Assembly: GCA_964553615.1 (NCBI GenBank)
Contig: CAZKMA010000001.1
Span: forward strand, 14,209-78,208
From: an uncultured Spirochaetales bacterium
GTDB taxonomy: Bacteria > Spirochaetota > Spirochaetia > DSM-27196 > DATKUC01
Direction of reading: 5' to 3'
Length of the DNA: 64,000 nucleotides
Shown: positions 36,122-51,614 of the stretch, one piece after another
Numbering within the stretch: the stretch's first letter is position 1
Layout of the letters: each line of letters opens with the position of its first letter
Made by a program: the position numbers and the translations under genes
The notes under the pieces: generated by a model
Told to the model about the DNA's origin: nothing
What the model saw: only the letters and a program-made list of their open reading frames with translations
Database searches by the model: none

Positions 36122-37049
36122 AGATCTTGAGGCGGAGAGGGACATGGCAGATCAGGCCGAAACATTGCGGGAGATGATGAAAAAGAAGCCGGCCGGCGAT
36201 GCCGCGGCGGGCGGTCGTAACGACGGGAAGGGTTCGGATGGCAACAAGACCCGAATAATAGCCATTGCAAGTGGGAAGGGCGGCGTCGGAAAGACGAATA
36301 TTGCCACGAATATGGCAATCGCATATGCCCGAATCGGGAAACGCGTAATCCTGATGGACGCCGACCTGGGTCTTGCGAATGTGAACGTCGTATTGGGGAT
36401 TATCCCGAAGTACAACCTGTATCACTTGATTCGGAAGCAGAAGACGATGAGGGAGATCCTGATGGATACCAGCTACGGTATCCAGATAGTCGCCGGGGCC
36501 AGTGGTTTTGCCAAAATTGCAAACCTTTCGGAGGAAGAACGGCAAATCTTCATTCACGAATTGTCTGAACTCTCCAGCGCAGACGTCATTATCATTGATA
36601 CAAGCGCCGGTGTTTCGAACAATGTGCTTTCGTTCATAGCGGCGGCGGACGAGGCAATTATTGTGACAACTCCGGAGCCAACCGCCATTACCGACGCGTA
36701 CGGGATTATCAAGATTATTGCCACCGAGATAGACAATCTGAGTCTCAATCTCAAGCTCATTGTCAATCGAGTTCGTTCAGTAACCGAGGGAAAGAAGGTA
36801 GCGGAGCGGGTAATCAATATTGCCGGACAGTTTCTGAACCTGAAGGTGGACTATCTTGGCTACGTCTATGACGATCCGGCTGTTCATCAGGCTGTTCTCC
36901 GTCAGCGTCCTTTTCTTGCCATGGATGCCAAGGGCAAGGCATCTATCTGTGTTCAGCATATGGTCGGACGTCTGGAGAAGGTGAGTGTCGGCGAAAATGG
37001 TGGAATTGGGCGATTTCTGCGGAAATTGCTCGGCAAGCAGGGAGGATAG
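36114..37049 (+). CDS. flhG: Flagellar number/placement regulator FlhG (MinD/ParA-type ATPase, YlxH)
   Basis: Deviant Walker A IASGKGGVGKTN. MinD-like core. Follows flhF with an 8-nt overlap. Confidence 0.9.
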   Translation: MAKDLEAERDMADQAETLREMMKKKPAGDAAAGGRNDGKGSDGNKTRIIAIASGKGGVGKTNIATNMAIAYARIGKRVILMDADLGLANVNVVLGIIPKYNLYHLIRKQKTMREILMDTSYGIQIVAGASGFAKIANLSEEERQIFIHELSELSSADVIIIDTSAGVSNNVLSFIAAADEAIIVTTPEPTAITDAYGIIKIIATEIDNLSLNLKLIVNRVRSVTEGKKVAERVINIAGQFLNLKVDYLGYVYDDPAVHQAVLRQRPFLAMDAKGKASICVQHMVGRLEKVSVGENGGIGRFLRKLLGKQGG

Positions 37050-37066
37050 CGCGAGGGGCGATTCTG

Positions 37067-37840
37067 TTGACGGGCATAGATATTTGGCCTAAGCTGTACG
37101 TGGGAATAGTAAACTGGGGTATTATGGAAGCGAATTGGAGAGTAAGCGCCGTTTTCGCGGGAGCGGCCTTCATCCTGTCCATATTGATTGGGGCGATAGC
37201 CGGCGTCGGCTTTGGCCTGGTACTCCTGCGCGCGATAGTCGGTGCCGTAGCCTTCGGAATTGTCGGTGCCGTCGTTTCCCTCATCATTGCCAGATACCTG
37301 CCGGAGCTCGGGAGTCTGCTCGGCAGCACACCGGGCCAATCCACCGAAAACAAAGATGAAATCGGTAAGACGGTCAATATTGTTCTTCCGGAAGAAAGCA
37401 ATGACTTGAACTATCGCCCATCGTCCATGGAAGACGGTATCGGCGAGTATGATTCCGACGACGGAGAAGAGCGCAGTCTCGGAGGAGATGCGCTCGTCGA
37501 AGAGGTTGAAGAGCTTGCATCCGGAGATGAAGGAAGCGAAGACAACGAACTCACGGAAGCCGACGAGGTTTCCGAACGCCGCCGTTTCGAATCCGCCGGT
37601 GCGGAAGAAATAGTGAGCGATCGGGAGACTGTAGAGCTGCTCGAGTCGGGAGATGAAAGTTTGCCGGATATTGCCGGATTGTCCGGGTCCTTTACCGAAG
37701 GACCGGAATCGGCAGTGCCGGCGCGGGATGGCTTCGGCGCGGGACCGACGCGCGGGAATAGCTCGTCTGGTATCGACCCGGGAGACCCGGAAACCATTGC
37801 ACGAGCATTGCGGACGGTATTGAAACGGGACGAGTCGTAG
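37067..37840 (+). CDS. Hypothetical membrane protein: two N-terminal TMs plus a long acidic, probably disordered tail
   Basis: Gly/Ala-rich TM pair (AVFAGAAFILSILIGAIAGVGFGLVLL; AIVGAVAFGIVGAVVSLIIARYL). About 170 aa of D/E/S-rich sequence follows. Start is ambiguous (TTG 37067 or ATG 37124). Lies between flhG and fliA. Confidence 0.55.
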   Translation: MTGIDIWPKLYVGIVNWGIMEANWRVSAVFAGAAFILSILIGAIAGVGFGLVLLRAIVGAVAFGIVGAVVSLIIARYLPELGSLLGSTPGQSTENKDEIGKTVNIVLPEESNDLNYRPSSMEDGIGEYDSDDGEERSLGGDALVEEVEELASGDEGSEDNELTEADEVSERRRFESAGAEEIVSDRETVELLESGDESLPDIAGLSGSFTEGPESAVPARDGFGAGPTRGNSSSGIDPGDPETIARALRTVLKRDES

Positions 37841-37861
37841 GTAAGAAAGGAAAGGAACGGT

Positions 37862-38650
37862 ATGGGCGACAACGTGCTGGCGGAAATGACTGAGGAGCAA
37901 CTCTGGCGAAAATACCGCAAGACGCGTAATCCGGAAATCCGTGATGCTCTCGTGAAACAGTATGCTCCGCTGGTGAAGTATGTGGCGGGGAAGGTCGCCA
38001 TTGGGATGCCGCACAATGTCGAGTTCGATGATCTGGTGGGATACGGAGTATTCGGGCTTTTTGATGCGATAGAGAAGTTCGACCCGGAGAAGCACGTCAA
38101 GTTCAAGACGTACGCGGTTACCCGAATACGCGGTGCGATATTCGATGAGTTGCGGTCAATAGACTGGGTGCCGCGCTCGATTCGGCAGAAAAGCAGGGAA
38201 ATTGAGGAAACCGTTCGCCGACTCGAGGCAAGCCTTGGACGTTCTGCAACGGACCGGGAAATTGCCCGGGCGCTGAACATGACCGTACGCGAGTTCGAGA
38301 AACTCATGCTGAAGATCAGCGGAACGTCCATCCTTTCCCTCAATGATGTCTGGTACACAGGCGACGACAACGACAAAGTCTCAATCGCAGACAGCATTGA
38401 ATCACCGCAGAGCCTGAATCCCGACACCATTGTCGAAAAAGATGAGATCCGGCAGGTCATTATTCGATCGATCAATGAGCTTCCGGAAAAGGAAAAGAAG
38501 GTTCTCATTCTTTACTATTACGAGGACCTTACGCTGAAGGAAATCGGCCAGGTGCTCGAAGTCACGGAGTCGCGCATATCTCAACTGCATACAAAGGCGA
38601 TCATGCGTCTTCGGGCAAAACTTACAAACATCCGTAAGGGCATTATGTAG
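37862..38650 (+). CDS. fliA: Flagellar RNA polymerase sigma factor FliA (sigma-28 / SigD / WhiG family)
   Basis: Region 2 ([46 protein letters not shown]). Region 4 HTH ([29 protein letters not shown]). Confidence 0.94.
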
Positions 38651-38658
38651 TTGGCTAT

Positions 38659-40608
38659 ATGATAGGTCTGGATGAACTGCAAAGTTTCATGAAGAAGCAG
38701 GCTGAAGAAGATCGGAAACAGAGTTTTGTCAATGTTTCCGGCGAAAGTCTGCAGGATGCACTCCGACAGGCGTCAATAGAGCTTGGCATGCCGGTGAAGA
38801 ATATCGAGTACGAAGTTCTCGAGAACGGATCGAAGGGATTCCTCGGCACCGGAAAGAAACCATGCATCATTCTGGCGTATCCTGCAAAACAGACCGCTTC
38901 AAAGGATAACGAGTTCATCGATGACCTGGAATTCGCAATGCCGGAAAGCGGAGAAGCACAGAATCCAAACAGCGACGGTGAGGTGTTCGTACGTCTTTCT
39001 CCGCAGGGCGTGCTCCTGAAGGTCACTGCCCCGAGGGGGAGTGGCGCTCGGGTAACAGAGCGCCAGGCGGTGGAGCGATTGGCCGCACGGACCGGCGAAT
39101 CGATCGATCGGGGAATAGTAGCACGTCTGGTCAAGCGCGCGACCGGAGAGTTCGTCCGGGTCGGAGATTTTGACCACAACCCATCGAACGATGCCATCCT
39201 GTCACTCGAGATCGCCGACATGGAAATGAAGGCTTTCCTCACCGCGCTGCCTCCGGGGCCCGGAGGCGCAGATCCGTCGTTCGAGGCTCTTCAGGAGTTC
39301 ATACAGCAAAACGGAGTAAGTGAGGGCGTAAAGGAAGATGTCCTTGCACGGTTCTCGGATGCGCCCCAGTACAAACTGCCCGTTCTGGTTGCCGAAGGCT
39401 TATCCCCGACGAATGGTGAAGATGCCCGGATTGTGTATAACTTTGAGACTGATCCCACCAAGATCCGGCTCAAGGAAACAAATGGCCGGGTGGATTTCAA
39501 GGAGCTCAATCTGGTTCAGAACGTTGTTGAAGGACAGGTTCTGGCGCGGAAGATTGCTGCCCAGCGCGGGGAAGCCGGCCGAACGGTAACCGGGAAGCTG
39601 CTACCGGCCCGGGACGGCAAAAATGTCGATCTGGATGTAGGCAAGAACATCATTCTCTCAGATGACAAGATGACCGCTGTTGCGGAGATGAATGGGCAGG
39701 TCATTCTCTCAGGAGACCGCATTCACGTGGAGCCGGTATACACGGTGACCGGAGACGTAAACCTGAAGACGGGGAATATCCTTTTCCTCGGAACCGTCGT
39801 TGTGACCGGGAACGTCGAGGATGGATTTTCGGTCAAGGCCGCCGGCAATATTGAAGTGATGGGAAGTGTCGGCAAAGGGGATCTGGATGCCGAAGGGGAC
39901 ATCATTGTGCATCGTGGCATAACGGGCAAGTCCACCGGCTCCGTAAAGTGCGGGAAGAGCGTCTGGTCGAAATTCATCGAGAATGCTCGGGTGGAAGCCG
40001 GTGAATTGGTCGTGGTGAGTGATGGCATAATAAACTCCGAAGTGTACGCCAATCGGAGAATAATATGTAAGGGCAAGCGCGCGGCTATTGTCGGCGGCAG
40101 GACACGCGCATCCGAGGAGATTAATGCAAAGATCCTGGGCTCCGTGGCGGGAATGGAGACAGTCCTGGAGGTGGGGTACGATCCGAAGGGTCGCGAACAT
40201 CTTGCGGACCTTATTCGACGCGACGGAGAGATTACCACCGAACAGGGTGATATTCAATTGAACATGAAGACGCTGGAAAATCAGCTTCGGGCCAGGAAAC
40301 AGCTTCCGAAGGAACGTATTTCGGCATACAATGATATGAAGCAGCGAAAAATAACGCTCCTGGGCGAGCAGAAGCGGGTGCGGGAGGAAATCACCGAGCT
40401 TCAGAGCTACCTCAGTCAGCTGAAGGTGCAGGGTAAGATTTCCGCCTCCGGTGCGGTATATCCGGGCGTAAAAATAAACATCAAGGACGCATACCTCGAA
40501 GTGCGAAACGATTTCAAGGGTGTTACGTTCCTTTCTGAAGGTGGGACGGTAAAGGTTACCAAATACGAAGAGTCTGACGAAGATATCAGTATGAACAGGA
40601 GGGAATGA
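38659..40608 (+). CDS. FapA-family (DUF342) flagellar assembly-type protein with a Jag_N-like N-terminal domain
   Basis: N-terminus resembles Jag_N (LQDALRQASIELGMPVKNIEYEVLENGSKGFLGTGKKP). DUF342 hallmarks present (ADMEMKAFLTALPP..., beta-helix repeats GNILFLGTVVVTGNVEDGFSVKAAGNIEVMGSV..., AAIVGGRTRASEEINAKILGS..ETVLEVGYDP) plus a C-terminal coiled coil. Confidence 0.8.
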   Translation: MIGLDELQSFMKKQAEEDRKQSFVNVSGESLQDALRQASIELGMPVKNIEYEVLENGSKGFLGTGKKPCIILAYPAKQTASKDNEFIDDLEFAMPESGEAQNPNSDGEVFVRLSPQGVLLKVTAPRGSGARVTERQAVERLAARTGESIDRGIVARLVKRATGEFVRVGDFDHNPSNDAILSLEIADMEMKAFLTALPPGPGGADPSFEALQEFIQQNGVSEGVKEDVLARFSDAPQYKLPVLVAEGLSPTNGEDARIVYNFETDPTKIRLKETNGRVDFKELNLVQNVVEGQVLARKIAAQRGEAGRTVTGKLLPARDGKNVDLDVGKNIILSDDKMTAVAEMNGQVILSGDRIHVEPVYTVTGDVNLKTGNILFLGTVVVTGNVEDGFSVKAAGNIEVMGSVGKGDLDAEGDIIVHRGITGKSTGSVKCGKSVWSKFIENARVEAGELVVVSDGIINSEVYANRRIICKGKRAAIVGGRTRASEEINAKILGSVAGMETVLEVGYDPKGREHLADLIRRDGEITTEQGDIQLNMKTLENQLRARKQLPKERISAYNDMKQRKITLLGEQKRVREEITELQSYLSQLKVQGKISASGAVYPGVKINIKDAYLEVRNDFKGVTFLSEGGTVKVTKYEESDEDISMNRRE

Positions 40609-40931
40609 TGGCAGTTCAGCCCATCGACCTGCAGACTCTTTTTGTTCGGCTTCAGCAGGTCGGACAGGACCAGGCGGCCCTGAAGGATTCCGTCACGCAG
40701 GCACAGGCGGTTGCCGGGCAGGAAATAGTCCAGAAGAGCGTTCAGCAGCAGTCCAGCGTTACCCAGACACCGGAACTGCAGGAAGGACTCGAAAAGGTAT
40801 CCGACGAAGAAGGACGAAAGGAGCCGCGCGAGCAGTCCCAGAAGCAGAAAGAGGAAGAAGAGGAAAAGAGAAGGAAGGCCAACGTCTTTCATGACCCCGA
40901 CCTGGGGCAGCATATCGATATCTCCGGGTAA
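40605..40931 (+). CDS. Small hypothetical protein (Q-rich N-half, E/K-rich C-half)
   Basis: 108-aa ORF with an ATGA overlap to the upstream gene. No family recognised by eye. Coding status is supported mainly by translational coupling and operon context. Confidence 0.5.
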   Translation: MMAVQPIDLQTLFVRLQQVGQDQAALKDSVTQAQAVAGQEIVQKSVQQQSSVTQTPELQEGLEKVSDEEGRKEPREQSQKQKEEEEEKRRKANVFHDPDLGQHIDISG

Positions 40932-40945
40932 CCATCCAGCGTCCT

Positions 40946-41527
40946 ATGTCAACACTACTGGCCGTACTGCTCAACATACTCATTGCTGCGATTCTATACA
41001 TTATCCTCACCAAAAGAATTGATACTCAGCTGAATCCGAAGGAGATGCTCGACAGAATTCGCAACGAAGTCGAGGATATTCTGAAAGAGCTGAATCATAC
41101 GACCGAACGGAATATTGGTCTTATTGAAGACCGCATTGACTCTCTGAAGGGTATCCTCGAGACCGCAGATCGCCGGTTGTCGTTGTTGCGCCGGGAGGCC
41201 GAGAAGCAGGAAGTCAGTTCGGCAATCTACAGTAATATCGTGAAGAAGGCACGCCCGATTGCGCAGGACGGCGGTTCGGTGGAGGCGCCTGCCGAGGTTC
41301 GTGGAGCAACAGACCCGGTTGAGGCATCCGGAGGAGAAGGGGCAGCGGCAAAGGCGGACGCGTCGCCTGAGCAGCGGCACGGCAAAAAACTGAGCATTCA
41401 GGAACAGGTGCTCGATCTGAACCGGAAGGGTATTTCCGCCAGCGTCATTGCCTCCCGTCTTGGCTCTACGATCGGCGAAGTTGAACTCATAATCTCGATA
41501 CAGGGCAATCGCGCTTCCGACCGCTGA
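40946..41527 (+). CDS. Hypothetical single-pass membrane protein with coiled coil and a C-terminal HTH-like segment
   Basis: N-terminal TM (LLAVLLNILIAAILYIIL), coiled coil (RIRNEVEDILKELNHTTERNIGLIEDRIDSLKGILE), and C-terminal LSIQEQVLDLNRKGISASVIASRLGSTIGEVELIISI. Confidence 0.55.
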   Translation: MSTLLAVLLNILIAAILYIILTKRIDTQLNPKEMLDRIRNEVEDILKELNHTTERNIGLIEDRIDSLKGILETADRRLSLLRREAEKQEVSSAIYSNIVKKARPIAQDGGSVEAPAEVRGATDPVEASGGEGAAAKADASPEQRHGKKLSIQEQVLDLNRKGISASVIASRLGSTIGEVELIISIQGNRASDR

Positions 41528-41561
41528 GCTTTCGGTCGGATCCAGAGAAAGGGAAACATCA

Positions 41562-43253
41562 GTGAAGGCAATCATCGGCATCGACCTTGGCACAACGAAC
41601 TCGGCAATTGCGTTCATGGACGGAGAAGAACCACGTGTCATCCCGAACGATCGTGGCAACCGGATAACGCCTTCGGTTGTTGCCATCAGCGAGTCCGGAG
41701 AGATTCTGGTAGGAGAATCTGCGAAGAATCAGGCAATTGTCAACGCACGTCATACAATATCTGCGGTCAAGCGCACCATGGGCAGTGCAACACGGTTCGA
41801 TATTCTGGGCAGATCATATTCACCCGAGGAGATAAGTTCGTTCATACTTCGAAAATTGAAACAGGACGCGGAGACGTATCTGGGTACGCGGGTTACCGAC
41901 GCCGTCATAACCGTTCCTGCCCATTTTTCCGAGATCCAGCGGAGAGCTACGCAGGAGGCGGGACGACTTGCAGGCCTTCGCGTCCAACGCATCTTGAACG
42001 AGCCAACGGCCGCTGCACTTGCCTATGCCTACAAGACGCCTGGTGACAGGAATATTCTGGTCTATGATCTTGGTGGAGGAACTTTCGACGTAACCTGTCT
42101 GCAAAAGAGTGGGAGCGTATTTTCCGTTCTCGCTACAGAGGGAGACAATCACCTCGGAGGCATAGACTTCGATGCCGCGCTGCGCGAACGAGTACTGGCT
42201 GAGTTTGAGGGAAACTCAGGAGTGAAAATCCGCGAGGAGCCGGTTCTCCTGCAGCAGCTTTCGGAATTGGTGGAACGCGCAAAGATCGAACTATCAACAC
42301 GCGAGTCGGCGCACATCGTAATGCCGTTTCTTGGCGGCGGAACGAATGGACGACCGGTACATCTGAGTTCGGCTATCAGTCGCTCGCTGTTCAATCAACT
42401 CATTGATGAGTCGGTGCAGCAGACGATCAGGTTGACAAAGACTGCCGTTCGCACCGCAGGATTCGGGCTTCGAGGAATAGACAGTCTGGTTCTGTCCGGA
42501 GGATCGAGCCGTATTCCGCTCGTTCACACGTATCTGAAACGCGCACTCAATCTCGATCGTGTAGCGCTCGTAAACCCCGATGAGATTGTTGCTATTGGTG
42601 CCGCAGTTCAGGCTTCGCTTCTGGGACAGAACGGCAAGACCGACGTCAATGACGTAACCGCATACAATCTCGGGGTGGAAATCGAAGGAGATCAATTCAT
42701 CACGGTTCTGTCCCGGAACACCGCAATCCCAGTCGAAATAGAGAAGACCTTCACCACCGTAACCGATCGTCAGGTATCGGTAGAAATTCACGTGTTGCAG
42801 GGCGATTCACCAACCGCATCACGAAATGTTTCTCTCGGACGTTTTCTCCTATCGGGAATTCGCGTGGGCGCACGCGGAGAGCCCCGGGTGAGTATTCGGT
42901 TCAGTGTAGATTCAGATGGTCTTGTGTGGGTGAGCGCCCGTGACGTTGAGACGGGGGCCGAACAGAAGATTACCGTGATTCCGGACGTAACCGGGGACCG
43001 GTCGCAGAAAGAAGCGGAGTTCGACGTCGCCGCCCGAGTGAGTGCTCTTGTGGATCGCGTCACATTGCTGTACGAGCAGGAACAGGGCAGGCTCGAAGCG
43101 TCGTTCAGCACGGAAATTCAGGATCTCGTTCAAACCGCCCGGGCAGCAATCGAAGCGAATGAGCTCCGTACCCTTCACGAGTGTCATCTCGCTCTCGAAA
43201 CAATAATCGGAGAGTTGCACATTGAACTCGGATCATCGGAGGTGTCTCAGTGA
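41562..43253 (+). CDS. Non-canonical Hsp70-family ATPase (short-lid, HscC/DnaK-1-like)
   Basis: IGIDLGTTNSAIAF, YDLGGGTFDVT and VLSGGSSRIPLV ATPase motifs. Interdomain linker DVNDVTAYNLGVEI. Beta-sandwich SBD present. Only 563 aa, with a truncated helical lid and no acidic tail. Confidence 0.88.
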   Translation: MKAIIGIDLGTTNSAIAFMDGEEPRVIPNDRGNRITPSVVAISESGEILVGESAKNQAIVNARHTISAVKRTMGSATRFDILGRSYSPEEISSFILRKLKQDAETYLGTRVTDAVITVPAHFSEIQRRATQEAGRLAGLRVQRILNEPTAAALAYAYKTPGDRNILVYDLGGGTFDVTCLQKSGSVFSVLATEGDNHLGGIDFDAALRERVLAEFEGNSGVKIREEPVLLQQLSELVERAKIELSTRESAHIVMPFLGGGTNGRPVHLSSAISRSLFNQLIDESVQQTIRLTKTAVRTAGFGLRGIDSLVLSGGSSRIPLVHTYLKRALNLDRVALVNPDEIVAIGAAVQASLLGQNGKTDVNDVTAYNLGVEIEGDQFITVLSRNTAIPVEIEKTFTTVTDRQVSVEIHVLQGDSPTASRNVSLGRFLLSGIRVGARGEPRVSIRFSVDSDGLVWVSARDVETGAEQKITVIPDVTGDRSQKEAEFDVAARVSALVDRVTLLYEQEQGRLEASFSTEIQDLVQTARAAIEANELRTLHECHLALETIIGELHIELGSSEVSQ

Positions 43254-43840
43254 CACTTCGGCAGATGTATACTACTCTTGGCTTGAGTGAAGGTGCCAAC
43301 ATATCCGAGGTGAAGAGAGCGTATCGCGATCTGGCAAAACGGTTGCATCCTGACGTGAGCGGATGGGACGGAACGCGCGAGGAGTTCGAACGGGTCAGTG
43401 TTGCGTATTGTGAGCTCTTGGAGCGGCTCTCGCGGGATATCGTACGGAACCGTTCCATGAACCTTGCCGATATCGGACGGCAGCTCGAGTTCGGGTCCTC
43501 CGAAACAATTCGTCTTGGTGCTGCCCGAATGCTTGGCCGATGCGGAAGGAAGGCGGCGTATCCGTATCTCCGAAAGGCATTGTACGATGAAAGCGAAGAT
43601 GTGGTGATTGCCGTTGTCCGCGCAATTGGTGCCTTGCGGATTGCTCAAGCGTCCGGTGAGCTTGCAGCGTTGTTTCTGCGGACTTCGCTTCGAGTGAAAG
43701 AGGAAATTATTGAGGTCGCCGAGACGATGGGTGACAAGCCTCAATTCCTGTCCCTGGCATTGACTGGAATGTCCGACGGCAATCGGACCATTCGCCGCAG
43801 ATGTGTTCGTCTCTATTCCAGACAGAAGAGGGCCGTATGA
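43250..43840 (+). CDS. J-domain protein fused to HEAT/PBS-lyase-like repeats
   Basis: J domain with intact HPD (MYTTLGLSEGANISEVKRAYRDLAKRLHPDVSG). No G/F or zinc-finger region. C-terminal HEAT-like repeats (IRLGAARMLGRCG..AYPYLRKALYDESEDVVIAVVRAIGAL). GTGA overlap with the Hsp70 gene. Confidence 0.8.
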   Translation: MTLRQMYTTLGLSEGANISEVKRAYRDLAKRLHPDVSGWDGTREEFERVSVAYCELLERLSRDIVRNRSMNLADIGRQLEFGSSETIRLGAARMLGRCGRKAAYPYLRKALYDESEDVVIAVVRAIGALRIAQASGELAALFLRTSLRVKEEIIEVAETMGDKPQFLSLALTGMSDGNRTIRRRCVRLYSRQKRAV

Positions 43841-45930
43841 ATGCGAAGCTAGAATCGAGGTTCCTGCGAGACGGATCCGGGATGATCGAGACCGTTGACT
43901 ATTCGGTGAACCAGCTCGAGGAACGTGGATTTGACAATGCACTCATCGAACAGGCGTTCCGGGCGGTTCATTCGCTTAAGTCCGAGAGTGCATTTCTCGG
44001 GTACAGTGATCTCGCTGACAACGCCGGACTTCTCGAGGAGCTTCTTGACCGCTGGAAGAAACGGAAAGCGGCACCACCCGATGCGGATGCGAAGCGGATC
44101 CTCGCAATACTGCAGACAATCAAAGGCCTGTTCCGCTCCATTGCGACGCATTCGGTAGAGAGCGGGGACGATAATCCATCGGGAAAATCGGGCAATTCCT
44201 CCGCCGCGCGTCCGGTCGCACCAAAAACGTCGGGCGATTCACCCGGGCGGCGTGTTCCCGCCGGCCGAGCTGCGGCCCACACGCAGAAATCTTCCGCCAT
44301 TCCCCGAGAAAAGGCGCCGAGAGCCGAAATGGACCCGGAGTTCGCAATACACCTGAATCCGTTCCAGAGACAGTTGCTTCGGGAGGCCCGTGGACGAATG
44401 GAACAGCTTTACCGGCTGGAATGCGAGGTGGATCCGTCAGAGCCTATGACCTATGCACGGCTGTATCTTGTCATCAGCAATCTCGAGCAGATCGTGCATG
44501 TCGTAAAGATGTACCCGAGCCTCGACGCAATACGGCAGGGTAAGAGTGCATTCCTGCAGGTCCTGCTGACAACGACACTTCCCGAAGAGAAGATCACGAA
44601 TGCCGTGAATGTTGATCAGATATCTCATGTGCAAGTCTCTCCGCTCGAATATGAGCCGATTCTCCGAAACTCAGCCGATGAGAGCGTTTCCGACCGTGCC
44701 GGGGCTCCCGGGGAGCGGTTGTTTTCGGTCAGCATGCCCGGACGTAAGTATGAAGAGTTGTGTTTGAATGCCGATGAAATCTACTCAAGACTGGGACAGG
44801 AGTGGACTGAACTCGAAAAGGCGCCAATTGAAAGCTCGATAAAGGCCCGAATCCAGTGGAATCTGCTGCTGGTGAATCGATTGGCGGCGTGGATGAGGAG
44901 CACTATTTCCAGCTTTTCCACTGCGCCGCTCACCGAAGTCTTTCAGGGGCTATCTTCTTTTGTCGAGGAATTGGGTCGGCAGCTCGGAAAGCAGGTTGTC
45001 CTGCGCGTACAGGGTGAACACGCAAGAGTATACCTGCCGGTATCCGACACGATAACCGATGTGCTGCTCCACCTTCTGCGAAACGCGATCGATCATGGTA
45101 TTGAAACGCCGGAGGTGCGCAGGCAGCGGCAGAAGCCTGCGCAAGGTACTATTCGGATATCGGTAACAAGCGGACCGGAAAAGCTGACAATACGAGTTGA
45201 GGACGATGGAAACGGAATACCGGAAGATTTGATTGCGGAAATGCAGCGGGGTTCAACGCAGGACAGTATTGCATCGATCGATGCCGAATCCTCCGGCCTG
45301 CGAGACATGCATCCCGACCAGAAAGCGGTGCGCGAACAGCGAGACCTTCTATCCATAATTTCGAGGGCTGGATTTACAACCCGATCGGAACCAACTGAAG
45401 TCTCAGGACGTGGGGTTGGTCTTGACGTAGTAAGCTACTCTGTCAGGAAGCTGCTTTGCGGTCGCATTGAGCTGCAGAACCGCCCGGGGAAGGGATGCGT
45501 GTTTTCGCTCGTACTGCCTGCCTCCACGAACCTCATTACCGTCCTCATTCTTCAGGCGCGAGGTGAGTATCTTGCTCTTCCGCGGGTGTTCATCTCCGAC
45601 ACCTTCGAACTTGATCGTCGATTTGTCTTCAATGACGAAAAAGACTCTACCTACTATCGCTATGGCGGAGAAAACGTACGATTGTATACGGTGTATGAAC
45701 ATTTCCCCGAAGCTCTATCTTTCGATCGAAAGAGAATGGGTGTTATTATCGAAATAGCCGGTGAACGCGGCGTAATTGTCTCCGATAGATTCGTATCTGA
45801 AGAGACTGTTGTCCACGATCGTTCCAGACGGAACGTAGTCTTTTCTCAGATACTCAACAAGGATGTACGCTTGTTCCTGCCGTCTCAGCTCCTCTCTGCG
45901 CTCAGTTTTCGGCGAGGAGAGTCACATTGA
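43837..45930 (+). CDS. cheA: CheA-family histidine kinase (Hpt, unassigned middle region, kinase core, CheW-like domain)
   Basis: Hpt motif FRAVHSLKSESAFLG (His45 from ATG 43837). N box HLLRNAIDHGIE, G1 DDGNGI, F GFTT, G2 SGRGVGLDVV. C-terminal CheW-like domain. ATGA overlap with the J-domain gene. Confidence 0.8.
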   Translation: MNAKLESRFLRDGSGMIETVDYSVNQLEERGFDNALIEQAFRAVHSLKSESAFLGYSDLADNAGLLEELLDRWKKRKAAPPDADAKRILAILQTIKGLFRSIATHSVESGDDNPSGKSGNSSAARPVAPKTSGDSPGRRVPAGRAAAHTQKSSAIPREKAPRAEMDPEFAIHLNPFQRQLLREARGRMEQLYRLECEVDPSEPMTYARLYLVISNLEQIVHVVKMYPSLDAIRQGKSAFLQVLLTTTLPEEKITNAVNVDQISHVQVSPLEYEPILRNSADESVSDRAGAPGERLFSVSMPGRKYEELCLNADEIYSRLGQEWTELEKAPIESSIKARIQWNLLLVNRLAAWMRSTISSFSTAPLTEVFQGLSSFVEELGRQLGKQVVLRVQGEHARVYLPVSDTITDVLLHLLRNAIDHGIETPEVRRQRQKPAQGTIRISVTSGPEKLTIRVEDDGNGIPEDLIAEMQRGSTQDSIASIDAESSGLRDMHPDQKAVREQRDLLSIISRAGFTTRSEPTEVSGRGVGLDVVSYSVRKLLCGRIELQNRPGKGCVFSLVLPASTNLITVLILQARGEYLALPRVFISDTFELDRRFVFNDEKDSTYYRYGGENVRLYTVYEHFPEALSFDRKRMGVIIEIAGERGVIVSDRFVSEETVVHDRSRRNVVFSQILNKDVRLFLPSQLLSALSFRRGESH

Positions 45931-47055
45931 ATTCGCGTAACCGAATGAGCTCCGCAGAACTCCTGTGTCAGGCGTATACAGATTACCGCGGAGAAACCGA
46001 ATCCCCGTTCTCTGACCACGTTGCATAGTTTCCGCCCGATTATTCTGCACGCGTGCATAGAGTGGTTCGGTACGGCCATCGAGAGAAAGCGCAACCATTG
46101 TGTGCGGACCTTCGGACATCACGGCGATTACCGTAAGCAATCCCTCGTCCCGTCCGCCCTCCGGAAGCATGGAAACCGCCTCCGGTCGAACATGGATGAT
46201 GCACTTATCGTGATTGAACACGCCGCACTCCGGCGGAACTAACAGGAAACAGTACGGATCATCATCAGGAATAAACAACACCCGATCGTCCGCGACGTGT
46301 ATTTCGCCCCGCAGCAGGTTGGTGCGGGGATTGCCGGTGAACTCGGCGACCTGGACGGTTGCCGGATAATCATAGATTTCCTCCGCACTACCAATCTGCT
46401 GCAATTCCCCGTGAGCGAGAACGCCGATGCGGTCCGCCAACGTCATGGCCTCCGTTTGATCATGCGTAACAAAGATCGAAGTTGTTCCCAGGCGATCATG
46501 AAGTTGCTTCAATTGTGCGCGCACCGAAACCCGAAGAAGGGGATCGAGATTCGAAAGAGGTTCGTCGAACAGGAGAATGTCGGGTTGGGCGACAATTGTC
46601 CGTGCCAGTGCAACTCTCTGTTGCTGTCCACCGCTCAGATGACTCGGACGCTGCCCCTTGAATGACTTCATGTCAACCAGATCGAGCGCAGCATCAACAC
46701 GTTGTGCAGTCTCGAGTTTCCCGACGCCCCGAATCTTGAGTCCGAATGCGACATTCTCAAACACGGTCATGTGAGGGTAGAGAGCGTAGCTCTGGAAGAC
46801 GAATCCGGTATGCCTGTCCTTCGGTGAGACATCGATTCCGGTCAGCTCCGAGTGCATGCACCGATCGCCGAAATAGACATCTCCACCAGATGGAGTCTCG
46901 AGTCCTGCCAGACATCGAAGCAGGGTTGTCTTGCCGCAGCCCGATGGACCGAGCAGAACGAAGAACTCACCGTCCTTTACCTCGATCGATACGTCACTCA
47001 ATGCGGGCACTTTGTCGTACCACATTGCCAGGTGTTCGATCCGGATGTCCGGCAT
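45922..47055 (-). CDS. ABC transporter ATP-binding protein, MalK/UgpC/MsmX family (no cognate permease nearby)
   Basis: Walker A GPSGCGKTT, signature LSGGQQQRVALAR, Walker B ILLFDEPLS, and a C-terminal TOBE-like regulatory domain. Confidence 0.9.
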   Translation of the reverse strand: MPDIRIEHLAMWYDKVPALSDVSIEVKDGEFFVLLGPSGCGKTTLLRCLAGLETPSGGDVYFGDRCMHSELTGIDVSPKDRHTGFVFQSYALYPHMTVFENVAFGLKIRGVGKLETAQRVDAALDLVDMKSFKGQRPSHLSGGQQQRVALARTIVAQPDILLFDEPLSNLDPLLRVSVRAQLKQLHDRLGTTSIFVTHDQTEAMTLADRIGVLAHGELQQIGSAEEIYDYPATVQVAEFTGNPRTNLLRGEIHVADDRVLFIPDDDPYCFLLVPPECGVFNHDKCIIHVRPEAVSMLPEGGRDEGLLTVIAVMSEGPHTMVALSLDGRTEPLYARVQNNRAETMQRGQRTGIRFLRGNLYTPDTGVLRSSFGYANSM

Positions 47056-47079
47056 GAAGGAATACCCCTCCCGCGGGTC

Positions 47080-47697
47080 CTACAGGTGGCCGTCTGCGAT
47101 AACTCGCCTGATTTCGGACACGGTTTCGTCCCACAATCCTGCGCGGTACCATGATGCCATTTCCCCGGCTACACTGCGGTAGAGGTCTCGAAGCTTCCGC
47201 TTGTCCTGAAGGTCTTCTGACCCTTCAAGCGTCTTGATCTCATCGGCGTGAGCGGCCTTCCATACGGCCAGTTTTTCTGATGCGGCGGCAGGTCTTTCCA
47301 CCCAGTGACCAATGAGCTTCCATTTCGCATCGTAGAAGGTCAGAACCGGAATATGATCGAGACCCTGATCGTTGTATGCCCTGTTCAGGTCCTCGTAAGT
47401 CTTTATGTGAAAGACTTTCATGTCCATTCCAGGTACGGAATTCACGATTGCCTCGACGATAGGCAGATTGGTGGCCGAATCGCTGCATCTGTCTTCGGTA
47501 AGCACAGAAACATGAATGGTGCCGCCGTGTCTTTGTACGAGGTCGGCAAAGGCGTGCGCTTCCTGCTCCGATATGGCAGCTTCGTTTCGAAGTTCGCTTA
47601 CGAGCTGTTGATGCGCCCGTATGCTTTGCACGAACGTGTCATAGGTTGGTGCCGCTTCGTACAGTTCCGGGTTCATGGGCAGGGTGGTTTGATTCAT
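47080..47697 (-). CDS. Thioredoxin-fold family protein (monothiol RCSDS motif)
   Basis: Thioredoxin-like pattern (VLTEDRCSDSATNLPIVEAI...IPVLTFYD..WKLIGHWVERP). Start chosen at MNQTT (ATG 47697) after SD GGAGGA. The track ORF extends to 47784. Confidence 0.6.
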   Translation of the reverse strand: MNQTTLPMNPELYEAAPTYDTFVQSIRAHQQLVSELRNEAAISEQEAHAFADLVQRHGGTIHVSVLTEDRCSDSATNLPIVEAIVNSVPGMDMKVFHIKTYEDLNRAYNDQGLDHIPVLTFYDAKWKLIGHWVERPAAASEKLAVWKAAHADEIKTLEGSEDLQDKRKLRDLYRSVAGEMASWYRAGLWDETVSEIRRVIADGHL

Positions 47698-47895: not shown

Positions 47896-49755
47896 TTAGG
47901 CAGAGGGAGAATGGTTTAGCCAGGAAAGGCCGTTTTCGAGGCATTTTCGATGAAAGCGCGAAGATTCGAGGAGTCCCTCGTAGATTGACCGGCTGTTCTG
48001 CAATACCTTCTCCGCGGTAACCAATTCGGGGTTCTGGTTATTCAGCTCCCGGACGTTTCTCTGCATGAGAAATCCTACGATGTCGCGGTTCGGATTTGCA
48101 GAGATCTCGCTGTCCAGTTGGTTCAGAAGTTCGAGGTTCGGAACGATGTTCTCCGACTGGGAGAGAGTGTGTTCTGCTTCTGTGACAATTGCCGTACCGC
48201 GCACCGCCAGTGCTTCAATTTCGAGTAGTTCGGTCCTGAGTGTATTGACGGTATCGATGAGGTTCTTGGTACTCGTCACGGGTGGTGACGCGTTCTCGTG
48301 AAGCTTGCCGATTTCCTCGAGTTTCGAACGCGCTGTTCCGGGCAGGTCCGGAAGACTGAGGACTTCCTCGATGTTGGCGTACGATACGCCCTGGAGCTGT
48401 ACCGCATGGGGTGAAAGAGAGCGAGTGTCACACTCGGGAAACCGTTTGGCCTGTCCCTCGAACCAGGTCCGGTAAATGAGCATCCGCTTGTCGGACAGGA
48501 CCGTGGTTCCCGAGTTGTCCGGGACCGGGAAGAGGCCTGCTTCATGGAGATAACGGAATGAATGATGTTCTCCGGGTGCGAGCCGGGTTGCAATTGTCTG
48601 GATTCGTTCTTCGAAAAAACTGCCCCGGAAATGCGTCTGGCGCCCGGGAAAGCCAAGGTCGACTCCGCTCGTATAGATGGGCGTGCATCCAAGGATCCGG
48701 AGAAAATCCCACGCGCTGGTTGACACCGATCCTCCGGCGCCCAGTTTCCCCATGGGGCCTGTCCGGGCTTCGATGTACTGTCCCAGGGGGAAGAGCGAGC
48801 TGCAGAAATGTATTGGTCCGGAGAGGAGTCTGAAGACTCGTGGATGGGTCGATGATTCGGAGATGAGGGGGGCTTTTGCCCCTGCAGCACGATCCAGGTG
48901 TCGGGTGTTCCAGTACTGAGGATCGACAACAACGACGAAATCCGGTTCCACACCTGCGCTGCGGCAGGCGGCAAGGCTGGTGTCCACCGTGACAACTATG
49001 CAGGAGCGTGCAATTTCCCGAAGATGCGGCAGGACGAGATCGAGGCTCGGGCCTCCTCCGAGTAGTATGCCAGGTAGTGCGGGAAAGAGGCCTTCGAGAT
49101 CGGCGAGGCGCCGGGACCGGGTGAATACTGGAAGATTGCGCGTGAGATTCCGTACCCAGAGCTCACCGAATCGAATGAGCGTGTTTTGATTCACCCGCGT
49201 GCGAGACAGGTAGGCCGCGGCGCGGCTCTCGACCTTCTGGTAATACTCTCGGTGCTGGTCGTATTGCGGCCTGAACCGAATAGTCTGGAAGTCGGTGGAT
49301 TCTGTGGCATTCAGAATGTCCATTATCTGGTCGGCGGCATCGGTGCCGAACAGATAATGGACTCTCTCACGAGCGAACAACTCGCGAAAGTCGCGCGCTT
49401 TCAGCACTGCGGCGAAGAGCGGAATATCCGGTTCGACCACCACGACATGTGCAGATGGATGGGTTTCGACGAGGGTTTCAGTGATGTAGCCGAGTCCAAA
49501 ACCTTCGACGATGTAGCAGCCCGTCGGAACTCCGGAGTCCGCGACAATGCGTTCGGCCTCCCGGCGCGGAGCGTGGCTGCTGTGAAGGCTGATTTCCCCG
49601 TAACGGGCGGTGACTTCACCGCTGCGTGCGATCATTGTATGCAGCTGATCTGAGGCGCAGGTTGATCGGATGAGTGCGGCGAGGTCCGGATACGCCTTCG
49701 AGAGTTCGGAAAGGTTTCTTGACCAGATGGATGTCTCGTCAAAACGGTTCTCCAC
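47896..49755 (-). CDS. Motility-associated factor (Maf)-type glycosyltransferase family protein, DUF115 / MptE-like domain
   Basis: DUF115 core (PGILLGGGPSLDLVLPHLREIARSCIVVTVDTSLAACRSAGVEPDFVVVVDPQYW). GTG 49755 is preferred (SD GGAG, 1-nt overlap with the PBP stop). The alternative ATG 49830 would overlap the PBP gene by 76 nt. Confidence 0.75.
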   Translation of the reverse strand: MENRFDETSIWSRNLSELSKAYPDLAALIRSTCASDQLHTMIARSGEVTARYGEISLHSSHAPRREAERIVADSGVPTGCYIVEGFGLGYITETLVETHPSAHVVVVEPDIPLFAAVLKARDFRELFARERVHYLFGTDAADQIMDILNATESTDFQTIRFRPQYDQHREYYQKVESRAAAYLSRTRVNQNTLIRFGELWVRNLTRNLPVFTRSRRLADLEGLFPALPGILLGGGPSLDLVLPHLREIARSCIVVTVDTSLAACRSAGVEPDFVVVVDPQYWNTRHLDRAAGAKAPLISESSTHPRVFRLLSGPIHFCSSLFPLGQYIEARTGPMGKLGAGGSVSTSAWDFLRILGCTPIYTSGVDLGFPGRQTHFRGSFFEERIQTIATRLAPGEHHSFRYLHEAGLFPVPDNSGTTVLSDKRMLIYRTWFEGQAKRFPECDTRSLSPHAVQLQGVSYANIEEVLSLPDLPGTARSKLEEIGKLHENASPPVTSTKNLIDTVNTLRTELLEIEALAVRGTAIVTEAEHTLSQSENIVPNLELLNQLDSEISANPNRDIVGFLMQRNVRELNNQNPELVTAEKVLQNSRSIYEGLLESSRFHRKCLENGLSWLNHSPSA

Positions 49756-51614
49756 TACTGAAGCTCCAACTGTAGCGTCATGCCGGGCGCAATCCTGGTC
49801 CCGGGCGGAGGCGACTGTTTCGTCACCCAACCGTCCCCGGTTATGGTTACTTTCAGGTCTTTGCGGTCGAACAACGGCAGGAGTGCTCGCTTCGGGAGGC
49901 CGGTGAAGTCGGGAATTGTATCGGTAAATGCCGGAAGCTGAGGGCGAATAACGGTGATTCTGTTGCTGCTGCTTGCAACCTTATCCCCCTTGCGCGGTAT
50001 GCCGAAGTAGTTTCCCAGGAAGAGTGCTGCGTCGTGCGCAACGGGGGCTGCAATAATGCCTCCCAGGTAACCATTCTTCCTCGAATCATCGATCACGACA
50101 TACACAATGATCTGTGGATCGTCTGCGGGAAAGATTGCCATGCATGAGCTGAGGAAGGCGGATTTCGAGTAGGTCCCGGTCTTCTTGTCGTAGACTTGTG
50201 CCGTGCCGGTCTTCGCGGCAATGTCGTAGTCCTCAGAATGCGCGCGGATTGCAGTCCCTCCTGCTTGAGTCGCAGTTACCATGAACCCGAGCATCTTGTC
50301 GGCCATTATCGGCGAGATCACCTGCCGCACGGGATCGCGGGCGGACTGTGAAATAACTCTGCCGTCAGCGGAGACTATCTTCTCCACAACATGAGGTTTC
50401 AAGAGCACACCGTGGTTCGCTATTGCTGTGGCTGCAGTAATCATTTGCATTGCGGTGACGGAGATTTCCTGGCCGAATGTGATTGCCGGTTTAGACCGAT
50501 CAGTCCAGAATTCCGGCGTACGGAAGATCCCCTTCTCTTCGCCCGGGAGGTTGACACCGGTTTGCTCTCCAAATCCGAACTGCCGCAGCATGTGGTAGAG
50601 GTTTTCCTTTGATACCGTTTCGGAGGCGTATGATGCTCCTACGTTTGACGAGTACTTGATTATCCCCTGGACGTTGATCCGTCCGTACACGCCCAGATCG
50701 GTGACGGGAGGGTATACCTTGGTGTAGATGCCGTCGGCATTGAAATAGTCCTTCTCGGTAATTCCACCGAGCTGCATGATTGAGGACAACGAAAAAATCT
50801 TGAAGACGGATCCCGGCTCATAGAGGAAATTCACGGGAAAGTTGCGCCGAACGCTCGGCGGAGACTGGTTGAACTTATTCGGATCGAAGTTCGGCATTGC
50901 CGCGTACGCAAGAACGTTGCCGTTTTTTGCGTTCATTGCGAGGATCATGACCGATTTTGCATCATGATAGTCGTATGTCTGTTTTGCAAGTTCCTCCATC
51001 TTGTACTGAGCGTTTGCATCGATGGTGAGGAATATCTGATCGCCATAGACGGTTCCGCTCCGGGTTTCCGTGGGTGCCGGAGAGAGCTGCTTGTCATACT
51101 GGTACTCAATTCCCGCCAGTCCGTGATTGTCTACGCCCACAAATCCGAGCAGGTGCGACGCGAGGGATTTCTCAGGGTAGCTGCGACCGAAATCTGCCCG
51201 CAAACTGACCCCCTGCAACTTGCCTTCCGATTTCAATTCACGGATCCGCTTGCTCTCAGTTGGGGAGATGGTTCGTTTGATGACCGCAAAATCGCTTGTG
51301 CCGTGGATCTTGTCGAGTATCTGCTGAGCAGGGATGTTCAGCACATTGCCCAGGAGATTGGCCGTCTCCTGTGCGTCGGTTACGTTCGGGCCCCACACGG
51401 TAACCGTGTTCAGCTGTGTTTCTATTGCGAGAATCTTCCCGTTGCGGTCCAGGATTGGTCCGCGTTCGACTACGGTTGGTTGGGCGTCTGAGGTTGCGGC
51501 ATTCCTGTTGTTGAAGACCATCACCGAAGCGTACTGTATAATGAGTGCCATCGCGAACAGTCCCGCCGCGACGAACACAACGATGTAGCGAATACGATTG
51601 TTAGTCTTTTCCAT
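49755..51614 (-). CDS. Class B penicillin-binding protein (FtsI/PBP2-type transpeptidase) with C-terminal PASTA domain
   Basis: N-terminal TM anchor. SxxK (GSVFK), SxN (YSSN) and KTG (KTGTA) motifs. C-terminal PASTA-like segment (IPDFTGLPKRALLPLFDRKDLKVTITGDGWVTKQSPPPGTRIAPGMTLQLEL). Confidence 0.9.
   Translation of the reverse strand: MEKTNNRIRYIVVFVAAGLFAMALIIQYASVMVFNNRNAATSDAQPTVVERGPILDRNGKILAIETQLNTVTVWGPNVTDAQETANLLGNVLNIPAQQILDKIHGTSDFAVIKRTISPTESKRIRELKSEGKLQGVSLRADFGRSYPEKSLASHLLGFVGVDNHGLAGIEYQYDKQLSPAPTETRSGTVYGDQIFLTIDANAQYKMEELAKQTYDYHDAKSVMILAMNAKNGNVLAYAAMPNFDPNKFNQSPPSVRRNFPVNFLYEPGSVFKIFSLSSIMQLGGITEKDYFNADGIYTKVYPPVTDLGVYGRINVQGIIKYSSNVGASYASETVSKENLYHMLRQFGFGEQTGVNLPGEEKGIFRTPEFWTDRSKPAITFGQEISVTAMQMITAATAIANHGVLLKPHVVEKIVSADGRVISQSARDPVRQVISPIMADKMLGFMVTATQAGGTAIRAHSEDYDIAAKTGTAQVYDKKTGTYSKSAFLSSCMAIFPADDPQIIVYVVIDDSRKNGYLGGIIAAPVAHDAALFLGNYFGIPRKGDKVASSSNRITVIRPQLPAFTDTIPDFTGLPKRALLPLFDRKDLKVTITGDGWVTKQSPPPGTRIAPGMTLQLELQ

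Follow-up and report, generated by a model that had tools for sequence, protein, structure and literature searches.

At the end of a flagellar superoperon in an uncultured Spirochaetales bacterium lie three coupled genes, for an Hsp70, a J-domain/HEAT protein (J-HEAT) and a CheA-family kinase, whose relationship to one another and to the flagellar genes is the subject of this analysis. They occupy positions 41562-45930 of the window, that is, the whole stretch of 64,000 nucleotides (nt) that was analysed (assembly GCA_964553615.1, contig CAZKMA010000001.1, positions 14,209 to 78,208 of the forward strand). The open reading frame (ORF) list gives three tightly coupled + strand ORFs of 563, 196 and 697 amino acids (aa), encoding a short DnaK-derived Hsp70 (41562-43253), a class-C J-HEAT protein (43250-43840) and a divergent five-domain CheA (43837-45930). 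A preliminary description of the locus had the trio chained by 4-nt overlaps, and both overlaps are present: GTGA at 43250-43253 (cagTGA/GTGA) contains the Hsp70 stop as well as the J-protein GTG, and ATGA at 43837-43840 (tATGA) contains the J-protein stop as well as the kinase ATG. In the public gene call for the identical contig, the J protein begins at ATG 43265, and an 11-nt spacer would then take the place of the 4-nt overlap; GTG 43250 is favoured because the aligned J orthologues carry 5-6 residues ahead of the Y-x-x-LG motif. The Shine-Dalgarno sequence GGAGGTG sits 7 nt 5' of this GTG. The kinase start at 43837 agrees with the orthologues and the gene call, and an in-frame ATG further upstream at 43801 is disfavoured. 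The CheA gene shares a 9-nt 3' overlap with a convergent gene for an ABC-type ATPase (45922-47055, - strand; ORF list, Pfam ABC_tran), and the Hsp70, J-HEAT and CheA genes therefore close the + strand block, as had been described. The absence of grpE, cheW, cheY and methyl-accepting chemotaxis protein (MCP) genes from the 64 kb was likewise confirmed: six-frame phmmer --max searches of the window with E. coli CheY, CheW and GrpE and the Tsr signalling domain found no relatives (best E=0.2).

Analysis of the 196-aa protein revealed a J domain at residues 1-67 (Pfam DnaJ, 45.4 bits against a cut-off of 27.8) followed by a HEAT-like alpha-solenoid of ~120 aa at residues ~76-196 (Pfam HEAT_2, 36.2 bits against 27.7). 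It is assigned to class C because the glycine/phenylalanine-rich (G/F), zinc-finger and DnaJ_C domains were not matched in Pfam and its scores against the NCBIfam DnaJ/CbpA models are low (19-43 bits, with cut-offs above 290), which agrees with the architecture first described, a J domain with HPD fused to HEAT repeats. The HPD tripeptide at residues 33-35 (43346-43354, + strand) is invariant in all of the ~40 intact J-HEAT orthologues aligned and occurs in 52 of the 54 clusters that represent J-HEAT in an exhaustive HEAT-domain search. A word-indexed homologue search returned only 4 proteins, and the family was reached through genome loci and the exhaustive search. The single-sequence AlphaFold model is all-alpha with 11 helices (predicted local distance difference test [pLDDT] ~76). 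Its fold matches, all at E >0.001, were generic ARM, HEAT, alphaRep and PP2A-A structures together with the DnaJ J domain; since the matches are to generic solenoids only, the fold search yields no clue to the client. The linker between the J domain and the solenoid is variable: most orthologues carry [VI]-[DSN]-F-P followed by basic residues, some have low-complexity Gly/Arg/Ala-rich insertions of up to ~150 aa, and the window protein has the shortest linker among the orthologues and is without the motif.

The first protein is placed in the Hsp70 superfamily by Pfam HSP70 (PF00012; 499 bits, E=2e-149) and consists of a nucleotide-binding domain (NBD, residues ~1-355), a non-canonical linker (~356-364), a beta substrate-binding domain (SBD-beta, ~365-472) and a shortened helical lid (473-563). 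Residues 1-472 are 45% identical to canonical spirochaete DnaK, the best PDB match is Geobacillus kaustophilus DnaK (2v7y), and the SBD-beta aligns with that of DnaK. The protein nevertheless scores below the NCBIfam cut-offs for DnaK (547 vs 648 bits for NF001413 and 529 vs 822 for TIGR02350) and for HscA (412 vs 708 bits), and its context is flagellar, not hscB/isc. Alignment of 36 family members showed at least 90% conservation of the motifs IGIDLGTTNS, KR, NEPTAAALAY, DLGGGTFD and GGSSRIP, and likewise of the Arg/Asn/Thr patch (R-x-x-N-E-P-T) that receives the J domain. Comparison of these 36 members with two canonical DnaKs revealed that the VLLL of the interdomain linker is replaced (42627-42653, + strand): where canonical DnaK reads DVLLLDVT, the window protein has K-T-D-V-N before D-V-T, so that its linker is not of the hydrophobic type, and the family follows the pattern h-x-[RKN]-D-V-T, in which one hydrophobic residue is retained ahead of R, K or N. 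Beyond the SBD-beta, 91 aa remain (family range 86-110) vs 140-149 aa in the canonical DnaKs of related metagenome-assembled genomes (MAGs), and the lid is thus shortened rather than absent. The C-terminal acidic tail is missing. The intact nucleotide-binding motifs, truncated lid and missing tail reported for the 563-aa Hsp70 therefore stand. A canonical grpE-dnaK-dnaJ set is a separate locus in the related MAGs L013 and L016, and L012 carries grpE and a partial dnaK at a contig end. In this one lineage the set lies ~1.6 kb downstream of the CheA-like gene (L013:13606-17416, L016:7804-10430, L012:4874-5901), an adjacency that is probably coincidental. These genomes thus have the canonical DnaK system as well as the short flagellar Hsp70.

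For the third protein, Pfam detected only Hpt (33.8 bits against a cut-off of 24.6), P2 and HATPase_c (63.6 bits), leaving P3 and P5 undetected, and the scores against the NCBIfam CheA equivalogs (180 vs 950 bits and 109 vs 793 bits) place it, as judged from sequence, in the CheA family but under the equivalog thresholds. Comparison with canonical CheA by hhalign gave a collinear alignment (probability 100, columns 1-624) in which both P3 and P5 are aligned. The AlphaFold model (mean pLDDT 75) contains P1, P2, a P3 helical hairpin, P4 and an all-beta P5, and its top Foldseek matches are CheA P3-P4-P5 structures (1b3q, 8c5v), with TMt of 0.8-0.9 for P4. The layout comprises P1/Hpt (residues 1-110), a disordered linker (108-160), P2 (175-279), the P3 hairpin (302-360), P4 (362-561) and P5 (564-690). 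The alignment and model thus show a complete P1-P5 CheA with strongly diverged P3 and P5, in keeping with the CheA-family kinase that had been recognised here. The predicted phospho-accepting histidine of P1, His45 (codon 43969-43971, + strand; motif FRAVHSLKSE), is invariant in 13 orthologues of 23-63% identity, as are the N box (H412, N416, H420-E423), the G1 box (D456-G460) and the G2 box (G524-D530). A low-confidence variable insertion occupies the ATP-lid region between G1 and G2 (residues ~473-499; window 45228-45333); it is longer than in canonical CheA and varies in length among the orthologues.

Upstream of the trio lies a complete flagellar block that starts with flgB and ends in the order flhA-flhF-flhG-(238-aa gene at the flgV position)-fliA-fapA-108-aa gene-193-aa transmembrane protein gene. 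The last four form a conserved sub-module, which begins with fliA, encoding sigma-28 (37862-38650, + strand; NCBIfam FliA/WhiG 295 bits, above cut-off), and continues with fapA (38659-40608, + strand; Jag_N, FapA_N and FapA domains, Pfam FapA E=9e-74), a gene for a 108-aa conserved protein that has no Pfam match and is position-equivalent to 'YjfB' (40605-40931, + strand), and a gene for a 193-aa single-pass transmembrane protein with a C-terminal helix-turn-helix-like region (TM+HTH or TM/HTH; 40946-41527, + strand; Pfam DUF6115 25 bits, below cut-off). This order matches the sigma28-FapA-YjfB-TM+HTH sub-module known for spirochaetes (PMC11607428). Among the related loci described below, fliA is found in essentially all, and fapA, the 108-aa gene and the TM+HTH gene are kept in all. 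In 20 related loci, 4 nt are shared by the TM+HTH stop and the start of the Hsp70, and in the window 34 nt lie between the two; because of this overlap, the TM+HTH membrane protein, with a possible relation to B. subtilis SwrB, is a candidate anchor or client of the Hsp70/J-HEAT pair. Promoter and terminator scans of 36000-47500 found one sigma-70-like site vs 6.2 expected and 10 terminator-like sites vs 11.3 expected, and no sigma-28 site (TAAA-N14-16-CCGATA) was found in the window. As these scans are uninformative on an internal promoter, operon membership is read from gene packing only.

To place the locus among its relatives, a kinase-alignment scan of one genome per species gave 80 loci, nearly all from Spirochaetia, which were annotated with the window proteins, and metagenome loci were found by a scan with an 8-sequence HEAT alignment; ~85 related Spirochaetia loci were compared in all, over ~20 kb each. 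The order fliA-fapA-small-TM/HTH-[Hsp70-J/HEAT]-CheA-like recurs throughout the scanned loci, and the arrangement is found in more than 50 independent genomes, far beyond chance. The TM/HTH-Hsp70, Hsp70-J-HEAT and J-HEAT-CheA junctions are mostly overlaps or gaps of 1-4 nt. Searches starting from Hsp70 found the trio in 4 of 4 contexts, including the complete genome of Spirochaeta africana, and the metagenome loci reached through the HEAT domain comprise 7 trios and 3 loci with the pair only (L100-L102). In all loci, whether reached independently via CheA, Hsp70 or the HEAT domain, the genes follow fliA-fapA-small-TM/HTH. Among named organisms, those closest to the window are Salinispira pacifica, whose CheA is 60% identical, and Spirochaeta africana, which has the full trio. 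In the closest relatives of the window, L050 (6300-8755) and L007 (8110-10004), with 70% and 59% CheA identity, the J-HEAT, Hsp70 and CheA-like ORFs are fragmented, through either pseudogenisation or long-read/assembly frameshifts.

Among the 72 loci that contain both the TM+HTH and the CheA-like gene, Hsp70 and J-HEAT are both present in 40, both missing from 30 and reduced to decayed remnants in 2, and there are zero cases of the Hsp70 without J-HEAT. The two genes are thus one co-inherited unit, gained and lost together. The CheA-like gene directly follows the TM+HTH gene in 30 of the 72 loci, and the loci that lack the pair are scattered across neighbour-joining trees of FapA and CheA. Two recent deletions could be delimited. 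Comparison of L019 with L021 (~89% nt identity) revealed a clean 2,393-bp deletion with both pair genes gone (L019:1210-1225, L021:5876-8268), and L044 differs from L005 (~84% nt identity) by a deletion of ~2,015 bp (L044:9441-9968, L005:8269-10828) that leaves an in-frame Hsp70-N::HEAT fusion, in which the first ~40 Hsp70 residues are joined to the HEAT domain. Conversely, in L100:6091-8363, L101:6091-8363 and L102:278-2553, from a spirochaete lineage of high guanine-cytosine content in sludge and sediment metagenomes, Hsp70 and J-HEAT (HPD intact) are the final superoperon genes, a CheA-like gene is missing, and an NtrC-type response regulator is encoded next, on the opposite strand. Because each occurs at loci without the other, the pair and the kinase are separable.

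Borrelia burgdorferi offers a further comparison. The preliminary description placed a dnaK-1 gene a few genes beyond flhF/flhG in this species, and this proved correct: the flgB superoperon closes with bb0264 (hsp70, dnaK-1; 1,476 nt, ~491 aa), which overlaps bb0265, and lepB-3 comes next on the opposite strand. Transposon insertion in bb0264 yields viable mutants with reduced mouse infectivity (7/15 tissues). The uncharacterised bb0264 resembles the window Hsp70 in its position after the gene that follows fapA and a small gene, at the superoperon end beside an opposite-strand neighbour, whereas it is shorter, and genes for J-HEAT, a CheA-like protein and sigma-28 are all missing from its locus. 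The gene-neighbourhood survey thus upheld the proposal that the trio is co-localised in related genomes, with more than 50 examples, and contradicted the view of an obligate chaperone-kinase module, given the 30 of 72 loci with the kinase only (recent deletions included), the pair-only loci L100-L102 and the Borrelia Hsp70 alone. On the far side of the window superoperon, a convergent gene (47896-49830, - strand) encodes a 644-aa protein with Maf_flag10_N and MptE-like domains, typical of Maf-type flagellin glycosyltransferases, followed by a penicillin-binding protein (PBP) gene (49755-51614, - strand). A signal peptidase gene comes after the PBP gene in L090 and L091, as lepB-3 comes right after bb0264 in B. 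burgdorferi; because these signal peptidase genes are similarly placed, the Maf/PBP/signal-peptidase-side synteny beyond the superoperon end looks old.

The origin of the kinase can be read from three Spirochaetota MAGs in which the slot after the TM/HTH gene holds cheW-cheA-cheY (L030:9519-12398, L072:8226-11163, L079:9426-12385). The L030 and L072 CheAs, the two that were scanned, have all five Pfam CheA domains, and in the neighbour-joining tree the CheAs of L030, L072 and L079 group with one canonical database CheA as sister to a monophyletic divergent clade, of which a basal member, L045, retains a weak CheW-domain match. The window kinase shares the P1-P5 order and the catalytic motifs with these canonical cassettes, which like the B. 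subtilis fla/che operon have a CheA gene within or appended to a flagellar operon, but it lacks cheW and cheY neighbours, and its P3 and P5 have diverged beyond recognition by Pfam. The simplest history suggested by these sequences would be that a terminal cheW-cheA-cheY cassette lost its other members, leaving an orphan cheA in which P3 and P5 subsequently diverged. The kinase is accordingly no oddity tied to chaperones, since it is a full CheA with a sister clade in the same slot. The P3/P5 divergence is equal in loci with and without the pair. Directly 3' of the divergent kinase and on the same strand, MCP genes are found in L098 (10343-16108) and L099 (9176-11416); one of these receptors joins a Fe-only-hydrogenase-like/4Fe-4S sensor to MCPsignal, and one contains a zinc-binding CZB domain. 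Undetected P3 and P5 domains, vanished cheW and cheY neighbours and scores far below the NCBIfam CheA cut-offs would also be expected of a decaying, functionless relic (pseudokinase) of a lost chemotaxis cassette. Such a relic is, however, very improbable, given that the phospho-histidine and the N, G1 and G2 boxes stay invariant in 13 orthologues down to 23% identity, that the full five-domain fold is predicted, that ~80 loci still carry the gene whereas the pair next to it has been deleted repeatedly, and that MCP genes come next in L098 and L099. We also considered the pair as a replacement for CheW and rejected this, as loci without the pair are also without cheW and have an equally diverged P5. 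A role in anti-phage defence was likewise rejected, PADLOC giving no match for any of the three proteins.

From these observations, we consider it probable that the tail of the superoperon carries two separable add-ons, a flagellum-linked chaperone pair whose client is not obligately CheA, and an orphan CheA. The constant partners of the pair are the upstream flagellar genes and not the kinase, and because the pair is fixed behind fliA-fapA-yjfB-TM/HTH with or without the kinase, the most likely client is a protein linked to the flagellum or to motility that the same operon encodes or that belongs to the same assembly site. The CheA-like kinase is a possible client, though it cannot be the only or obligate one, and we infer at least equal likelihood for sigma-28, FapA or some other flagellar protein, which the rate covariation described below weakly supports. 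The pair itself shows the hallmarks of a dedicated chaperone, namely a private class-C J protein, an invariant HPD, joint inheritance and no nucleotide-exchange factor in the operon. The proposal of a dedicated Hsp70/J pair therefore gained support from the co-inheritance, the HPD, the intact Arg/Asn/Thr patch and the fixed place in the superoperon.

Several points weigh against this reading. In 47 of ~50 pair-bearing loci the kinase comes directly after the pair, and a functional link between them in pair-bearing lineages is plausible. 'Loss' of the pair means absence from this locus, with ~20 kb covered in each case, and a relocated pair elsewhere in those genomes is conceivable. The neighbour-joining trees carry no support values. 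The orthology of bb0264 to the window Hsp70 is argued from position and annotation only, and the divergent linker could mean that the Hsp70 is not regulated by a J protein in the classical way. Beside the anatomy, conservation, co-occurrence pattern and kinase ancestry that we observe, we infer ATPase stimulation, a specific client and its binding, phosphotransfer and a motility phenotype. Finally, an exploratory comparison of rates among 33 trio loci gave significant residual covariation of the Hsp70 NBD and SBD-beta with CheA P1 and P4 (partial Mantel, r 0.31-0.42), which points toward the kinase. The statistic is anti-conservative on related sequences, so that covariation is a lead only, and taken together it points both ways. 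In the same comparison, the J domain covaries with CheA P2 (r 0.33, exploratory), and the HEAT domain shows no positive signal with any CheA domain (r -0.22 to 0.11); after removal of the background it covaries with FliA (r 0.37) and FapA (r 0.40), both exploratory, and it also covaries with the Hsp70 lid.

Some of these points would suit an integrated chaperone-kinase module, in which the HEAT domain recruits the CheA-like protein and the Hsp70 folds, activates or disassembles the kinase, replacing control by receptors and CheW. The 4-nt overlaps that chain the trio in the window and in most orthologous loci, the kinase immediately downstream in nearly all pair-bearing loci, the pair filling the slot that cheW has in L030, L072 and L079, and the exploratory covariation of NBD/SBD-beta with P1/P4 and of the J domain with P2 are consistent with it. 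A precedent also exists: the overproduced J protein DjlA, with DnaK, activates the Rcs phosphorelay, weakening the IgaA-RcsD interaction (PMC11709261). As a specialised J protein and Hsp70 modulating two-component signalling, this is the best precedent for a chaperone-kinase link, although there the housekeeping DnaK is used and DjlA is not encoded with the kinase. Against such a module stand the kinase without the pair in 30 of the 72 loci, with two clean recent deletions among them, the pair without the kinase in L100-L102 and the solitary Borrelia Hsp70, the same P3/P5 divergence with or without the pair, and the want of positive covariation between the HEAT domain and CheA domains. We regard it as unlikely, at some distance from being negligible.

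The position of the pair, always 3-4 genes after fliA and within the sigma28-FapA-YjfB-TM/HTH sub-module, raises the alternative that it regulates sigma-28 or its partners (FlgM, FapA) and so times late flagellar expression, the kinase being an unrelated neighbour. The analogy would be with DnaK acting on sigma-32 or E. coli HscC acting on sigma-70. The exploratory covariation of the HEAT domain with FliA and FapA points the same way, as does B. burgdorferi, a single case, which lacks sigma-28 and has no J-HEAT gene after its Hsp70. FliA and FapA are, however, present in all loci with or without the pair, which is hence not needed for them; the partial Mantel test is anti-conservative on related sequences, direct evidence is lacking, and we judge this alternative to be quite unlikely. 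It is improbable, in our view, that the pair is a mere passenger at the operon end, a paralogue serving as a general or stress chaperone without any role specific to motility. Its repeated loss indicates that the pair is dispensable, its HEAT domain is like the generic HEAT/PBS-lyase-like repeats of thousands of unrelated proteins, and the viability of bb0264 transposon mutants would agree with such a role. By contrast, the position of the pair is fixed over deep divergence in three independent locus searches, translation of the Hsp70 is coupled to that of the flagellar TM/HTH gene before it, a canonical grpE-dnaK-dnaJ set is maintained separately in related MAGs, and a promoter-like site of its own was not found in the 36000-47500 scan, itself uninformative on internal promoters.

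Known systems offer comparisons for the pair. Like HscA/HscB, the dedicated pair of Fe-S cluster assembly, it comprises a DnaK-derived Hsp70 beside its own short J protein in an operon without a grpE partner, and like HscB the J protein combines HPD with a non-DnaJ helical client-binding domain, without G/F region or zinc finger. The two systems differ in that the window Hsp70 is not HscA by score (412 vs 708 bits), HscB has a three-helix bundle where the window J protein has a HEAT-like solenoid, and the isc context is replaced by a flagellar superoperon and the canonical linker by a non-canonical one. E. coli HscC is a short, atypical Hsp70 of ~560 aa with adjacent dedicated class-C J proteins, DjlB and DjlC, and its role is in regulation, not in folding at large. 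DjlB and DjlC are membrane-anchored, without HEAT repeats and without flagellar linkage; the window pair is compared with them by description only. By analogy, the pair would function like HscA/HscB or HscC/DjlC, yet it belongs to neither family as far as scores and architecture indicate.

On the model of Hsp70/J biology, the HEAT-like solenoid of the J protein would bind a specific client or an anchoring partner, and HPD would dock on the Arg/Asn/Thr patch of the Hsp70 NBD and trigger ATP hydrolysis. The Hsp70 could then clamp a segment of the client and hold, remodel or release it. The orphan CheA would autophosphorylate and feed a CheY-type regulator encoded elsewhere, as is expected because the phospho-histidine, the kinase boxes and the P2 docking domain are kept; its P3 dimerisation and P5 coupling domains would have diverged after the loss of the neighbouring cheW.

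In full-text searches of the literature (bb0264; Hsp70/flagellar operon/spirochete; J-domain/HEAT/CheA/Hsp70), we found no paper describing the pair or the orphan CheA. A 2024 paper on FlgV that dissects the sigma28-FapA-YjfB-TM+HTH sub-module does not mention the trio (PMC11607428). The orphan CheA illustrates how a kinase evolves after the loss of its cheW and cheY neighbours, with catalysis kept and the dimerisation and coupling domains remodelled, and it makes two questions testable, namely the identity of the regulator that receives its signal and its continued membership of receptor arrays. Bacterial Hsp70/J pairs with a known client are few, HscA/HscB being the paradigm, and a second widely conserved pair, with a HEAT adaptor and a place at the flagellar superoperon, would be a tractable system for the client specificity of J proteins. 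Its role would also give a function to bb0264, which closes the B. burgdorferi motility superoperon and whose transposon mutants are attenuated. A wider view, which we hold only tentatively, is that spirochaetes, from Borrelia (bb0264) to free-living Spirochaetia, possess an ancient and so far unrecognised Hsp70 system that is a dedicated accessory to the biogenesis or regulation of the periplasmic flagellum. In this system the HEAT J protein would deliver a specific client of the flagellum or cell pole, such as sigma-28/FlgM, FapA, the TM+HTH protein or, for certain lineages, the orphan CheA. If true, a chaperone cycle would for the first time be known to be built into a flagellar operon of bacteria.

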